A stretch of DNA of 64,000 bases from Escherichia phage 308Ecol101PP. The notes beneath the pieces are model-generated. The model was given only the letters and a program-made list of their open reading frames with translations, ran no database searches and had not been told where the DNA came from. Of this stretch, positions 4,870 to 62,933 are shown in pieces (within the stretch, counting starts at the first letter, position 1; every line of letters begins with the position of its first letter). Position numbers and translations under genes: made by a program. The stretch lies in sequence record OR062945.1; one strand, written 5' to 3'.

Positions 4870-4908
4870 GTTTACATGCTGATAGGACTATGTTATAGTA
4901 GTCCTATC
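4870..4908 (+). promoter_or_regulatory. Early promoter stem-loop cassette (PeSL-like)
   Basis: GTTTAC; 10-bp IR GATAGGACTA / TAGTCCTATC flanking TGTTATAG. Confidence 0.6.
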
Positions 4909-5201: not shown

Positions 5202-5241
5202 GTTTACATGATGATAGGACTATGTTATAGTAGTCCTATCA
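5202..5241 (+). promoter_or_regulatory. Early promoter stem-loop cassette (PeSL-like)
   Basis: GTTTAC; identical IR GATAGGACTA / TAGTCCTATC. Confidence 0.6.
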
Positions 5242-6697: not shown

Positions 6698-6772
6698 GGC
6701 CCTGTAGCTCAATGGGAGAGCTGTCAGCTCATAACTGATAGGTAGCTGGATCGAAACCAGCCAGGGTCACCA
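6698..6772 (+). tRNA. tRNA-Met (anticodon CAT; could be Ile2 if lysidinylated)
   Basis: Hand-folded cloverleaf: acceptor GGCCCTG/CAGGGTC, D stem GCTC/GAGC, anticodon stem GTCAG/CTGAT with loop CTCATAA, T arm GCTGG-ATCGAAA-CCAGC, encoded CCA. Confidence 0.8.
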
Positions 6773-6775
6773 ATT

Positions 6776-6852
<77 letters not shown>

Positions 6853-8270: not shown

Positions 8271-8299
8271 GTTTACTTCTTCCCTAGATGTGTTACTAT
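8271..8299 (+). promoter_or_regulatory. Early promoter (GTTTAC, 17 nt spacer, TGTTACTAT)
   Basis: -35/-10 spacing as sigma70 consensus; weak IR. Confidence 0.5.
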
Positions 8300-8327
8300 A
8301 GTCCTATTAAAACATGAGGAGAATATT

Positions 8328-8831: not shown

Positions 8832-8860
8832 TGTACAAACGCCAAGGACGGTGTTACTAT
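8832..8860 (+). promoter_or_regulatory. Early promoter (TGTACA -35, GTGTTACTAT -10)
   Basis: 17 nt spacer. Confidence 0.45.
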
Positions 8861-8889
8861 AGACCTATCAACTACAGAGGAGAAACAAA

Positions 8890-9117
8890 ATGGCTACAGT
8901 TAGTATTGATGTCGTTGATTATGAATACACCGAAGAAGTTATTCGCAGCCGTCACCCTGAAGTTCGTATCGATTCAGTCCAAGATTCCAAGTTTTGGACA
9001 ACCGAGCTTAATCTGAGTGGTCCTTATGAAGCTGTTAAGAAGTTCATGGTTGAAGAATACTGCGAAGGCATGCACCCCGAAGACGCCGAGTTTTATGTCA
9101 ATTTGATTAAAAAATAA
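8890..9117 (+). CDS. Hypothetical acidic protein
   Basis: Promoter 8832, SD GAGGAGA; 75 aa. Confidence 0.6.
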   Translation: MATVSIDVVDYEYTEEVIRSRHPEVRIDSVQDSKFWTTELNLSGPYEAVKKFMVEEYCEGMHPEDAEFYVNLIKK

Positions 9118-11924: not shown

Positions 11925-11963
11925 GTTTACAACAAGATAGGGCTATGTTATAGTAGTCCTATC
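11925..11963 (+). promoter_or_regulatory. Early promoter stem-loop cassette (PeSL-like)
   Basis: GTTTAC; IR GATAGGGCTA / TAGTCCTATC. Confidence 0.6.
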
Positions 11964-11982
11964 AAATTAAATGGAGTCCACA

Positions 11983-16509: not shown

Positions 16510-16564
16510 GTTTACTTCCTCCAAGGGTTTTGATACTATACATTCATCAACTACTTGGAGGAAA
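16510..16564 (+). promoter_or_regulatory. Early promoter cassette; IR pairs an anti-SD segment with the denV SD
   Basis: GTTTAC; TTCCTCCAAG (16517-16526) complementary to CTTGGAGGAA (16555-16564), which holds the SD; -10 TACTAT inside the loop. Confidence 0.6.
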
Positions 16565-16566
16565 TT

Positions 16567-17250: not shown

Positions 17251-17280
17251 GTTTACGCTTAAGTATTAATATGGTATAAT
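17251..17280 (+). promoter_or_regulatory. Early promoter (GTTTAC, 18 nt spacer, TATAAT)
   Basis: Consensus hexamers upstream of CTS gene 17311. Confidence 0.55.
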
Positions 17281-19026: not shown

Positions 19027-19229
19027 TGGCTAAATTGATTATAGAAGGGACTGAAGATGTTTTAAAATGTTTTGCCGCCTGGTTTAGTTGCTCAGGCGAG
19101 CAATCATTCATTGAAGCATTTAGAATGGGTGATATTACTGGAAAATATCCGTCAACCGATATCACTGTACGCGGATATGGTATTAATGAGCCTATCCAAT
19201 TGGTCGAATATGACCCTTGCCACCGATGA
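19026..19229 (+). CDS. Hypothetical protein
   Basis: TAATG overlap with grcA-like gene; 67 aa. Confidence 0.5.
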   Translation: MAKLIIEGTEDVLKCFAAWFSCSGEQSFIEAFRMGDITGKYPSTDITVRGYGINEPIQLVEYDPCHR

Positions 19230-19240
19230 GGAAATTCCTT

Positions 19241-19507
19241 ATGTCGATTGAAGACATCAAAGGCTACAAGCCACATACCAATGATAAAATCAGTAAAGTG
19301 AACGCTATTAAAGACGCAGAAGTCCGTCTTGGATTGATGTTTGATGCTCTGATTGAAGAAGCATATATCTTGAAAGAAAATGAATCAGAGCAACAAACCA
19401 AAGAAGATATGGATGCAGTGCAGGCTCTTAAGTATGCTAAGCAACATCTAAAAGAAGCCAGCATGTGGGCATGTCGTGCAGTATTTCGACCTGAGGAAAA
19501 ATACTAA
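19241..19507 (+). CDS. Hypothetical protein
   Basis: SD GAGGAAA then ATG 19241. Confidence 0.55.
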   Translation: MSIEDIKGYKPHTNDKISKVNAIKDAEVRLGLMFDALIEEAYILKENESEQQTKEDMDAVQALKYAKQHLKEASMWACRAVFRPEEKY

Positions 19508-19722
19508 TGGCTTCTACTATTACTGGGTTATTGGACTTTCAAGAAAAGGTCAACAAAATTTGTAGTGAATACTTAAAGTATCTTGAAGAAGACCTTGAAG
19601 ATTGTAAGGAAGAAGGCGAAGAAGACTATGCTGACCAGCGTCGTCGCCAAATCGAAGAGATGAGGCATTTCGCCGATATGGTATCTAAAGAATCTTGGGC
19701 TTTAACTCCATTTTATCAATAA
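19507..19722 (+). CDS. Hypothetical acidic protein
   Basis: TAATG overlap; 71 aa. Confidence 0.55.
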   Translation: MASTITGLLDFQEKVNKICSEYLKYLEEDLEDCKEEGEEDYADQRRRQIEEMRHFADMVSKESWALTPFYQ

Positions 19723-19726
19723 AGTA

Positions 19727-19777
19727 GTTTACTTCTCCTCTAGTTGTGTTACTATAGACCTGTCAACTAGAGGAGAA
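19727..19777 (+). promoter_or_regulatory. Early promoter stem-loop cassette; 14-bp perfect IR pairing anti-SD with SD
   Basis: GTTTAC; TTCTCCTCTAGTTG / CAACTAGAGGAGAA flanking TGTTACTATAGACCTGT. Confidence 0.65.
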
Positions 19778-19783
19778 ATCAAA

Positions 19784-20242
19784 ATGACTATCAATTCAGA
19801 CGTTTTTATCCGCCGCAATAAACTCCGTCGAATCTTTGAAACGGAGTTCCGCAAAATAAATGCCGGTATAAAAGATGCTGCAAAGTCTCTTGGACTACCA
19901 GGCTTTCATATCAAGTATTCTCAACATCTCTTAGATCGTGCCATCCAGAGAGAAATAGATGAGAACTACGTTTTTGAATTATTTCGTAAAGTAAAAAATC
20001 ATGTTAAAGAAGTTGCAGAATTTTTATCAATGCCGGCACGTCCAGATGTTGATGAAGATTTTGTCGAAGGTGTCGAATACCGTCCAGGCCGTTTAGAAAT
20101 AACTGACGGAAATCTTTGGTTAGGACTTACAGTTTGTCGCGAAAATCCAGCATTCAAAATGAAGACTCTTCAATGCAGAATGGCTATTATTAACAGTAAA
20201 CGACTACCAGGAAAAGCTTCTAAAGCAGTGATTAAAATCTAG
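19784..20242 (+). CDS. regB: RegB-like endoribonuclease (tentative)
   Basis: 152 aa (T4 RegB is 153 aa); lies between denV and tk as regB does in T4; promoter cassette 19727; call rests on size, position and partial recall of the sequence. Confidence 0.55.
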   Translation: MTINSDVFIRRNKLRRIFETEFRKINAGIKDAAKSLGLPGFHIKYSQHLLDRAIQREIDENYVFELFRKVKNHVKEVAEFLSMPARPDVDEDFVEGVEYRPGRLEITDGNLWLGLTVCRENPAFKMKTLQCRMAIINSKRLPGKASKAVIKI

Positions 20243-23379: not shown

Positions 23380-23431
23380 GTTTACTTCTCCTCAGGTTGT
23401 GTTATAGTAGACCTTACTTACTAGAGGAGAA
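23380..23431 (+). promoter_or_regulatory. Early promoter stem-loop cassette
   Basis: GTTTAC; TTCTCCTC / GAGGAGAA IR; -10 TGTTATAGT. Confidence 0.55.
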
Positions 23432-23435
23432 CGTT

Positions 23436-23881: not shown

Positions 23882-24097
23882 ATGTTATATGACCCAAGCG
23901 GTTGTTCTGAAGATGGTGTGATTGTTCTGGAGCCTGAGCATCCAGTTGGTGATGTATATCGCACCGTTGAAGTATGTGAATGTAATTTCGTTGAAGGTAA
24001 TACTGGCGGAATTTCCATTGAGCAAGAAGATGATGTTATTTACCTGGATGCAAGCCAAGTAGAAGCTCTTTATAGCATTTTAAAACATAATCGGTAG
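23882..24097 (+). CDS. Small protein, MLYD paralog 2
   Basis: MLYDPSGCSEDGVIVLEPE...C.C; SD GAGGAAA. Confidence 0.5.
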   Translation: MLYDPSGCSEDGVIVLEPEHPVGDVYRTVEVCECNFVEGNTGGISIEQEDDVIYLDASQVEALYSILKHNR

Positions 24098-24137
24098 TTT
24101 ACGTCTTGGTAGGACTATGTTATAGTAGTCCTACCAA
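24097..24137 (+). promoter_or_regulatory. Early promoter stem-loop cassette (PeSL-like)
   Basis: GTTTAC; IR TTGGTAGGACTA / TAGTCCTACCAA. Confidence 0.6.
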
Positions 24138-24154
24138 AACAAATGGAGAACAAA

Positions 24155-24442: not shown

Positions 24443-24973
24443 ATGAAAACTGTAATTGAAACAACCGAGTTGTTTGGTGATTTATGTATCGAAAAACGTG
24501 GTTATGTGTATGTTCTGACACAAGAAGATGATGCTGCTACTATTCTTCCTATGGAACTGGACAAGATTTTGAAACTCAATCCACCGGGTCATGCATCTGT
24601 AATTAACATTAATGAAGACCTTCAAGTTCGTTTTTATCATGGACTTTATAGTGGGGTTAATATCGAAACTGAAGACGAATGTTTTTCTATTAATAATTGG
24701 AAAACATTCGTCACTAAGGTGAAAGAATTCGTGGAATCTGAAACAGCCAAAAAGGCCAAACTTCAATGGGCTAAATGCCGTAATGCTTTTATTACAAATC
24801 AGGACCGCCCTGACTATACAACAGTCCTAGGCGTTAATCCTTCTTATGAAGATGGTGATGTCGTAGTTATTCGTCAAATTGATGACCTTCGACAACATAT
24901 CATTACATTAGACAAAGATGAAGCAGTTGCTCTTAAAGCTTATCTTGATTCTATTATCCCGACTTTGAAATAA
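24443..24973 (+). CDS. Hypothetical protein
   Basis: ATG 24443 two nt after upstream stop; 176 aa. Confidence 0.65.
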   Translation: MKTVIETTELFGDLCIEKRGYVYVLTQEDDAATILPMELDKILKLNPPGHASVININEDLQVRFYHGLYSGVNIETEDECFSINNWKTFVTKVKEFVESETAKKAKLQWAKCRNAFITNQDRPDYTTVLGVNPSYEDGDVVVIRQIDDLRQHIITLDKDEAVALKAYLDSIIPTLK

Positions 24974-28265: not shown

Positions 28266-28300
28266 GTTTACAAGGTCTATAGTTATGTTATTATAGACCT
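28266..28300 (+). promoter_or_regulatory. Early promoter stem-loop cassette
   Basis: GTTTAC; IR AGGTCTATA / TATAGACCT. Confidence 0.6.
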
Positions 28301-28321
28301 ATCAACTACTGGAGGTAAAAC

Positions 28322-37971: not shown

Positions 37972-38012
37972 GTTTACATCCTCAATAGATGTGTTAAGAT
38001 TAAACCATCTAC
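37972..38012 (+). promoter_or_regulatory. Early promoter cassette with IR TAGATG / CATCTA
   Basis: GTTTAC; -10 GTTAAGAT. Confidence 0.5.
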
Positions 38013-38028
38013 TATAGAGGAAAATAAA

Positions 38029-39099: not shown

Positions 39100-39138
39100 T
39101 GTACAACGATAGGAAGACGTGTTATTATCTTCCTATCG
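39100..39138 (+). promoter_or_regulatory. Early promoter stem-loop cassette
   Basis: TGTACA; IR CGATAGGAAGA / TCTTCCTATCG flanking GTGTTATTAT. Confidence 0.6.
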
Positions 39139-39159
39139 TCTTAAAATGAGGAAAATATC

Positions 39160-60942: not shown

Positions 60943-60996
60943 GTTTACATCTTCCTCTAGGCATGATACGATGTACTTACACCAACCAAGAGGAAA
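60943..60996 (+). promoter_or_regulatory. Early promoter cassette with anti-SD/SD inverted repeat
   Basis: GTTTAC; TTCCTCT ... AGAGGAA. Confidence 0.5.
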
Positions 60997-61001
60997 ACAT
61001 T

Positions 61002-61376: not shown

Positions 61377-61427
61377 GTTTACTTCTCCAGTAGTTGTGTT
61401 ATTATAGACCTATCAACTACTGGAGAA
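61377..61427 (+). promoter_or_regulatory. Early promoter stem-loop cassette; 14-bp perfect IR
   Basis: GTTTAC; TTCTCCAGTAGTTG / CAACTACTGGAGAA; differs from the 19727 copy by compensatory changes. Confidence 0.65.
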
Positions 61428-61431
61428 CAAA

Positions 61432-61749
61432 ATGAAAACCATCGATTGTAAAGCAGAATTTAAGATTTTTTATCACGGTTCAAGTAGTTCAGCTAACATC
61501 GAAAACATGCTTTGTCCTCCTGAGGAAACAGGAGTTCTGTCTGAAACCGGACGTAAGAAAAACTTGGATCGTGTATTCTTTACTGAAGATATCGGTTTAG
61601 CAAAGATTTATGCAGGACGAGCAGCACGCTCTTATGGAGGTGAACCACGTCTCTATCGAGTAATTTCTCCGGTAGACGTAGTTCAAATGAATGATACTAA
61701 AGGTGCTACAGTTTATCACGCTGAATGGGCATTTTGTGAGGAAATATGA
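61432..61749 (+). CDS. Hypothetical protein
   Basis: Promoter cassette 61377; SD GGAGAA. Confidence 0.6.
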   Translation: MKTIDCKAEFKIFYHGSSSSANIENMLCPPEETGVLSETGRKKNLDRVFFTEDIGLAKIYAGRAARSYGGEPRLYRVISPVDVVQMNDTKGATVYHAEWAFCEEI

Positions 61750-61937
61750 GCAAATTAACTAAAGTTACTTTTATAGGTTGGTTTAAAAGCGGTGAGATGT
61801 TCACTAAAGATATCATGTTATCAGGTGATCGCGAAGAAATCGAGTGGGTTACGGTACAACTTGCTGAAGTGAACAACGCATTAGTTAAAGCATTTGTTAA
61901 TGACGAGAAAGTTTTTGAAGCTGATTTCAGAGGATAA
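61746..61937 (+). CDS. Hypothetical protein
   Basis: ATGA overlap; 63 aa. Confidence 0.5.
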   Translation: MSKLTKVTFIGWFKSGEMFTKDIMLSGDREEIEWVTVQLAEVNNALVKAFVNDEKVFEADFRG

Positions 61938-62894: not shown

Positions 62895-62933
62895 GTTTAC
62901 ATTATAGATGGACTATAGTATAGTAGTCCTATC
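62895..62933 (+). promoter_or_regulatory. Early promoter stem-loop cassette (PeSL-like)
   Basis: GTTTAC; IR GATGGACTA / TAGTCCTATC. Confidence 0.55.

Follow-up and report, generated by a model that had tools for sequence, protein, structure and literature searches.

Organization of the regB promoter region and of a second cassette

The window analysed here, a stretch of 64,000 nucleotides from Escherichia phage 308Ecol101PP (OR062945.1), belongs to an RB69-like (Mosigvirus) T4-type coliphage, and a 4-kb piece of it around the regB cassette is 98% identical to phages of that group such as JS09, APCEc01 and SA79RD. It contains regB directly behind an early promoter of the T4 type. Synthesis of RegB, an endoribonuclease, is tightly limited. 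A second promoter of the same layout precedes the 105-aa gene at 61432, which overlaps the start of an ORF at 61746-61937; the SA79RD counterpart of that ORF is annotated as similar to RB69 Dmd. The coordinates of both cassettes and of related features are listed in Table 1.

At both 19727 and 61377 the early promoter pattern GTTTAC-N17-TAnnnT is embedded in a perfect 14-bp inverted repeat. The shared layout, read directly from the sequence, is GTTTAC, a 14-nt arm, TGT, a TAnnnT -10 box, 8 nt, the complementary 14-nt arm, 4-6 nt and ATG. Since the spacer from -35 to -10 is taken up by the 5' arm, this arm lies upstream of the predicted start of transcription, which the usual geometry of sigma-70 promoters places in the loop, some 7 nt past the -10. 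The 3' arm makes up nearly the entire leader, including the Shine-Dalgarno sequence (SD). The stop codon of the upstream gene is 4 nt ahead of the cassette -35, and an AT-rich stretch lies upstream of the promoter.

These two are the sole perfect inverted repeats of at least 14 bp with a loop of at most 30 nt in the 64-kb window, and none was obtained in 60 first-order Markov simulations. For perfect stems of at least 12 bp, five were observed against 0.2 expected from simulations of the window. Other inverted repeats in the window include perfect 12-bp arms at 39106/39128 (39106-39139) and 24674/24701 (24674-24712), as well as a 16-nt, 94% repeat at 19339-19398, within ORF 19217-19507 and just upstream of the 19727 cassette. 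No Rfam family matched the cassettes at gathering score; over the whole window, only two adjacent tRNA genes on the + strand were returned (6698-6769 and 6776-6849; RF00005, 59 and 71 bits).

Table 1. Cassettes, neighbouring genes and promoter hairpins of the window, with regB stems of other T4-like lineages.
Feature	Position	Strand	Sequence or stem	Remarks
regB cassette, -35 hexamer	19727..19732	+	GTTTAC	T4-type early promoter, from sequence
regB cassette, 5' arm	19733..19746	+	TTCTCCTCTAGTTG	within promoter spacer; holds anti-SD TCTCC
regB cassette, 17-nt loop	19747..19763	+		extended -10 TGT TACTAT, hexamer 19750-19755; predicted start ~19762
regB cassette, 3' arm	19764..19777	+	CAACTAGAGGAGAA	regB mRNA leader; SD / RegB target GGAG at 19772-19775
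regB, endoribonuclease RegB (GGAG-specific)	19784..20242	+		Pfam PF10715 (8.8e-69); PHROG 1323; annotation of relatives
61377 cassette, -35 hexamer	61377..61382	+	GTTTAC	
61377 cassette, 5' arm	61383..61396	+	TTCTCCAGTAGTTG	AG at 61389-61390 unlike cassette 19727
61377 cassette, loop	61397..61413	+		-10 TATTAT at 61400-61405; predicted start ~61412
61377 cassette, 3' arm	61414..61427	+	CAACTACTGGAGAA	SD GGAG; CT at 61420-61421 compensates AG of 5' arm
105-aa gene, RB69ORF040c-like	61432..61749	+		PHROG 2110; ATG at 61432
denV cassette	16510..16566	+	TTCCTCCAAG (16516-16525) / CTTGGAGGAA (16554-16563)	same design, other stem; -19.1 kcal/mol, z -3.8
Degraded 19727 paralogue	23380..23435	+	TTCTCCTC/GAGGAGAA	8-bp core kept, distal stem broken; -15.1 kcal/mol, z -0.75
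Degraded paralogue	8271..8327	+		no significant hairpin; -5.9 kcal/mol, z +1.5
Weaker cassette, same design	60943..61001	+	TTCCTCT.GG / CC.AGAGGAA	
Weaker cassette, same design	37972..38028	+	TCCTC..TAGATG / CATCTA..GAGGA	-12 kcal/mol, z -2.1
Second-class hairpins	4870-4905, 5202-5240, 11925-11965, 24097-24140, 62895-62930; also 13217, 28267			
regB stem, RB69 type			TTCTCCTCTAGTTG/CAACTAGAGGAGAA	
regB stem, T4			UUUUCCUCUUGACUG/CAGUUAAGAGGAGAA (also given as TTTTCCTCTTGACTG/CAGTTAAGAGGAGAA)	15 pairs, two of them G-U; -23.1 kcal/mol, z -4.5
regB stem, Salmonella STML-198-like			TTTCTCCTCTTTATG/CATAAAGAGGAGAAA	z -6.4
regB stem, Citrobacter CF1-like			TCTCCTGTAAGT/ACTTACAGGAGA	
regB stem, L077			TCTCCTGTAG/CTACAGGAGA	
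regB stem, L078			ATCCTCTCTG/CAGAGAGGAT	
regB, Klebsiella Mineola-like			GGGCCAT/ATGGCCC (inner hairpin)	enclosed by an outer SD-masking helix
regB, SP18-like				without spacer arm; -10 region pairs with SD plus AUG; -17.3 kcal/mol

Differences between the two copies

Over 51 nt, the 19727 and 61377 cassettes differ at six positions, of which four form two adjacent stem pairs and two lie in the loop. From the first copy to the second, T19739-A19771 becomes A-T and C19740-G19770 becomes G-C. A preliminary sequence-only reading of the window had described the change as CTC to CAG on the 5' arm and GAG to CTG on the 3' arm; its reciprocal nature holds, but the substitutions are really TC to AG and GA to CT. 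That the differences leave a perfect 14-bp helix in both cassettes, with a nearly identical -35 and loop, was confirmed from the sequence (both -35 hexamers are GTTTAC, with two differences in the loop).

The odds that two random substitutions in the 3' arm hit the partner positions with complementary bases are about 1/819, or about 1/117 if they are counted as a single dinucleotide event. Both stem changes are transversion flips, for which G-U intermediates are impossible. Amounting to one or two events, this pair of copies makes by itself a weak case for selected pairing and could equally reflect whole-cassette exchange or hairpin-templated mutation.

The hairpin at regB and denV in other phages

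Regions upstream of regB were gathered from IMG/VR, metagenomes and T4. A regB hairpin with different stem sequences is found in T4 and in at least five other lineages (Table 1). In T4 and in the STML-198-like, CF1-like, Mineola-like and metagenomic lineages, the predicted helix between spacer and SD has an energy of -18 to -23 kcal/mol and a z score of about -4 to -6. All lineages with a significant hairpin, including the SP18-like one, where the 5' arm has moved, have the SD within the helix. No significant hairpin was found upstream of regB in the distant lineages L017 and L083.

Similarly, the T4 denV stem (TCTCCTGTAG/CTACAGGAGA) has the same design as the denV cassette of the window. Orthologues of the 61432 gene were also checked for covariation; the long stem is present in the closest relatives only, and more distant phages keep only TCTCC/GGAGA.

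Covariation of the arms and pairing in cis

IMG/VR was scanned for GTTTAC-N-TCTCC...GGAGA (GTTTACNTCTCC..GGAGA), and the matches were filtered by the presence of a -10 box and a start codon; unfiltered matches included chance hits on unrelated contigs. The filtered scan gave at least 46 distinct cassettes. The pattern forces pairing of a 5-bp core, so that only the extension of the stem is tested: at least four further contiguous pairs past the forced core are found in 26 of the 46 listed cassettes, against 4.5% for arms crossed between cassettes. Among the matches listed, about 17 different extension sequences are placed identically with respect to -35 and SD.

A wider cassette alignment with covariation statistics was the check that the sequence-only reading had proposed for its claim that pairing itself is selected. 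When it was run on 42 rows anchored only on TCTCC/GGAGA (an arms-only pseudo-alignment with an artificial linker), the covariation score was 0.280, compared with 0.138 +/- 0.015 for shuffles (0/500 reaching it) and 0.06-0.14 for slid-partner controls. In the same alignment, 123 cells were changed on both sides, against 78.6 +/- 6.1. Substitutions in the arms were not mostly non-compensatory in this larger comparison, although degraded copies exist. A sequence-only MAFFT alignment of 14 cassettes submitted to RNAalifold also recovered the helix, with double changes in 8/9 pairs. A first MAFFT alignment of the regB upstream regions was left out of the pair counts, as it was not in structural register.

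Within the window, 21 early promoters were scored and several more were seen; most of the scored ones pair in cis. The spacers of these 21 pair with their own leader at a mean of -11.2 kcal/mol and with other leaders at -7.4 kcal/mol (permutation p<5e-5). Since the rows of these samples share phylogeny, the statistics are to be read as consistency and not as exact probabilities. Taken from the regB orthologues, the covariation of the anchored arms, RNAalifold and the comparison of cis with trans pairing, the earlier claim that the pairing is under selection is well supported.

Recombination at the cassettes

Several observations point to exchange of cassettes or of their parts. The 3' half of the 61377 cassette (61397-61424) shares 28 identical nt (GTTATTATAGACCTATCAACTACTGGAG) with positions 28287-28314 in the 28267 cassette, and its 5' half resembles cassette 19727, which suggests that the 61377 cassette is a chimera. 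The stem CTCCAGTAG/CTACTGGAG is also present at another gene in L158, a JS98-like phage. In view of the transversion flips, the 28-nt identity and the L158 stem, two independent point compensations are no more likely than either hairpin-templated mutation or a swap of cassette halves after which the arms were matched.

Close relatives also differ at the borders of the cassette. In L069, whose RegB is 99% identical (L069:1-404 compared with window 19463-19790), a different gene lies upstream of regB; homology with the window stops at 19512 and restarts at 19723, 4 nt before the -35, which indicates a gene replacement bounded by the cassette. In L011, about 256 nt are missing in comparison with L010 (L010:277-560, L011:530-560), and the deletion ends 10 nt before the regB -35. 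The regB 5' arm of L011 carries two uncompensated changes (GG for TT), and the cassette resembles a chimera, as would arise if the DNA between two cassettes were deleted. Part of the apparent compensation may therefore come from the exchange of whole cassettes and not from point mutation in place.

Taken further, these observations would make the complementarity a functionless by-product of quasi-palindrome correction, gene conversion or cassette shuffling: flips without a wobble intermediate suggest a concerted event, the 61377 cassette looks chimeric, one stem recurs at another gene in L158, and the indels of L069 and L011 end exactly at the cassette. We consider this very improbable. Templated correction only perfects a pre-existing palindrome, and it leaves unexplained both the excess of cis over trans pairing and the roughly 17 unrelated stems, among the matches listed, at one position relative to -35 and SD. 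Moreover, the presumed recombinant L011 is the mismatched one, while established lineages are perfect.

Folding of read-through and own-promoter transcripts

The predicted fold of a read-through RNA covering 19727-19795 has an energy of -21.6 kcal/mol (z -4.3), whereas that of RNA from the cassette's own promoter (19762-19830) has -6.5 kcal/mol (z +0.45). For the 61377 cassette, the corresponding values are -21.7 kcal/mol (z -5.3) and -4.0 kcal/mol (z +1.2). RNA from the predicted starts of both cassettes folds no better than shuffled sequence. The helix is still predicted within a 301-nt context. A + strand scan from the promoter at 17252 to the 19727 cassette found no canonical terminator, and read-through from that promoter into the cassette is therefore expected.

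With its 5' arm upstream of the start, the hairpin can form only in read-through RNA or in single-stranded DNA. The sequence-only reading had left open whether RNA or DNA is the relevant molecule. The geometry favours read-through RNA, since the 3' arm is the SD and the 5' arm lies upstream of the start site. Alternatively, the inverted repeat could work at the DNA level, either by modulating promoter activity in the form of a cruciform or single-strand hairpin, or as a site of recombination. Extrusion of a cruciform is disfavoured by a 17-nt spacer, such as the one found here. An action in DNA would fit two findings of the PeSL papers, namely that cassettes recombine with one another and that a hairpin forms on the single-stranded template during sequencing (PMC2839356, PMC4122927).

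Non-Watson-Crick pairs bear on the same question. Isolated internal ones in the anchored set are 4 G-U against 0 A-C. The broader scan gave 8 G-U against 6 A-C raw, or about 6 against 2 once stem-end artefacts at the -35 C are subtracted; these counts, few as they are, are only suggestive of a constraint on RNA, and the raw figures are compatible with a DNA-level constraint. The T4 regB stem, however, needs two G-U pairs, which are mismatches in DNA, and the regular use of the SD as 3' arm would be meaningless in DNA. An action in DNA thus appears highly unlikely to us.

Other cassettes and a second class of promoter hairpin

The 19727-type cassette has four copies in the window (8271, 19727, 23380 and 61377), and the arms of the copies at 8271 and 23380 carry uncompensated changes. 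The cassette at 8833-8892 has the family leader TACTATAGACCTATCAACTACAGAGGAGAA, an atypical -35 (ATGTAC) and a spacer without complementarity, and is a family member without the hairpin. In IMG/VR, 12-13-bp stems between spacer and SD (GTTTACATCTCCACCAAGG...TTGGTGGAGAT) were seen in L088, L121, L133 and L145, contigs of 10-15 kb, before a gene starting MNIF, with a G-U pair in one variant. The design may, judging from these cassettes, extend beyond the T4-like genomes examined.

In addition, early promoters commonly carry hairpins of a second class, in which the spacer again supplies the 5' arm, the loop contains the -10, and the 3' arm follows directly on the -10. One example is ATAGGACTA / TAGTCCTAT, and the stem is a perfect 12 bp at 24106-24137. 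The SD is free in these hairpins, so that masking of the ribosome-binding site is impossible for them. About half of the window's hairpin-bearing early promoters have a 3' arm that adjoins the -10 and a free SD (4870, 5202, 11925, 24097 and 28267).

The arm can also shift at a single gene. Upstream of gene 28322 (MNAKDIF...), the spacer at window 28267-28321 pairs next to the -10 (AGGTCTATA/TATAGACCT), and at the same gene in L158 (10644-10700), with nearly the same leader, it pairs with the portion of the leader that holds the SD (CTCCAGTAG/CTACTGGAG). Masking of the SD is consequently not the sole selected function of promoter-spanning hairpins. The spacer-anchored hairpin is thus the general theme, and SD masking is one form of it, the consistent one at regB.

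These SD-free hairpins, and the shift of the arm between two positions at one gene, are what would be expected if the stem-loop were mainly an attenuator or terminator, or a 3'-end stabiliser, for the upstream RNA. Masking of the SD would then be a side effect of a very short intergenic space in which only spacer and leader are free to vary. For one RB49 PeSL stem-loop, the reported drop in lacZ expression was as large as that caused by rrnB T1 (Arbiol et al. 2010, PMC2839356), and WebGeSTer calls a terminator at the orthologous site in SA79RD. At 19727-19790, on the other hand, the canonical terminator scan gives no call, no U-tract follows the stem (tail AUCAAAAUG, also given as ATCAAAATG) and the loop is 17 nt long, and the regB SD keeps its place within the helix in every lineage with a significant hairpin, even the SP18-like one. 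We regard attenuation as an unlikely main function of the regB-type hairpin. Both attenuation or stabilisation and protection from RegB are compatible with SD masking, and the terminator or attenuator idea of the PeSL authors may apply to the SD-free hairpins.

Comparison with known systems

The cassettes resemble the PeSL (promoter-early stem-loop) cassettes of T4-like phages (Arbiol et al. 2010, PMC2839356; Comeau et al. 2014, PMC4122927), intergenic composites with a small early gene downstream. The likeness extends to a sigma-70-type early promoter with an AT-rich upstream stretch, followed by an SD and an ATG in a short intergenic space; to a stable stem-loop in the promoter module (14-bp helices, with the energies given above for the read-through RNAs); to repetition through the early regions; and to a location at the borders of replacements and deletions between close relatives (L069, L011). 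No part of the stem-loop extends downstream of the start in the five published subclasses, and in the T4/PST PeSL it is drawn just upstream of the promoter. Here, in contrast, the helix spans the promoter, with one arm in the spacer and the other in the transcribed leader over the SD. The PeSL papers propose termination and recombination as functions (PMC2839356, PMC4122927); the word "translation" has no occurrence in PMC4122927, nor "covari" or "compensat" in PMC2839356.

Hairpins that sequester the ribosome-binding site and contain an internal promoter are known in T4 for e, soc, 49, I-TevI/II/III and segB, and in Aeh1 for mobE (PMC3014915, section 29; PMC2988022). At T4 e, soc, 49 and I-TevI, long transcripts mask the site and the internal promoter gives a translatable RNA (PMC3014915, PMC2988022). 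The cassettes share with these genes an SD held, here by prediction, in a stable helix of upstream-initiated RNA, and an internal promoter whose transcript, from the start site predicted here, lacks the 5' strand of that helix. The known examples use late promoters (TATAAATA), which delays translation to late times. In the present case the internal promoter is immediate-early and of the sigma-70 type and regB is an early gene, so that translation would be restricted to the earliest period. Edgell et al. state that the known cases "are all late genes" (PMC2988022). For this device the 2010 reviews consulted list late genes only, and an older description of a regB hairpin may exist in the primary literature.

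Like intrinsic (Rho-independent) terminators, the cassettes place a stable RNA hairpin between genes, where an upstream cistron ends. They differ in their AT-rich stem and long loop, and the identification as an intrinsic terminator was rejected, given the absence of a U-tract and of a canonical scan call. By analogy, cassettes that fit most of the PeSL description would work like the hairpins of T4 e, soc, 49 and I-TevI, with early promoters in place of late ones.

A probable role in transcript-origin-dependent translation

Masking of the SD that depends on the origin of the transcript is, in our estimation, the most likely role of these early-promoter hairpins, and a probable one. RNA from the cassette's own promoter would start about 2 nt before the 3' arm and, without the 5' arm, would present an open ribosome-binding site. 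Read-through RNA from upstream early promoters would contain both arms and sequester the SD in a helix of about -21 kcal/mol. Binding of the 30S subunit would then be blocked, and probably RegB cleavage at GGAG as well. Translation of regB and of the gene pair beginning at 61432 would be tied to the immediate-early promoter of each and insulated from upstream transcription, and the arms would covary because the pairing that buries the SD is selected. For regB, whose promoter is described in a review as shut off within 2-3 min, the nuclease would then be made only during the first minutes of infection.

RegB itself requires GGAG in single-stranded form, secondary structure readily inhibits the enzyme, and one of its targets is the SD of its own mRNA (PMC3014915, PMC1702504). 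Given this requirement, the helix should also protect GGAG in long RNAs. It could even be the chief purpose of the hairpin to hide GGAG from RegB in long polycistronic RNAs, so that delayed-early and middle transcripts are kept intact while the short early mRNA stays cleavable. The known properties of the enzyme agree with such a purpose, as does the presence of GGAG in all the strong SD-masking cassettes of the window. On sequence alone it is inseparable from translational masking, and we think it distinctly less likely than attenuation as the principal function.

If SD masking that depends on transcript origin is correct, it would extend a classic device of T4 late genes, a promoter inside a hairpin that masks the ribosome-binding site, to immediate-early genes, and would add an extra layer to the control of RegB. 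PeSL cassettes, hitherto regarded as terminators or recombination sites, would gain a defined translational role, backed by covariation across several T4-like groups. As the regB and denV promoters of T4 share the design, the idea is testable in T4 itself.

It is also conceivable, though doubtful, that promoter-spanning hairpins form a general "transcript-origin filter" of T-even early regions. With the 5' arm placed in the untranscribed spacer, an early module would yield protein, and lie open to RegB, only if its RNA came from the module's own promoter. Such a filter would set a sharp end to early protein synthesis once the early promoters are off and would protect long delayed-early RNAs. 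It would also allow PeSL cassettes to shuffle among genomic contexts without mis-expression.
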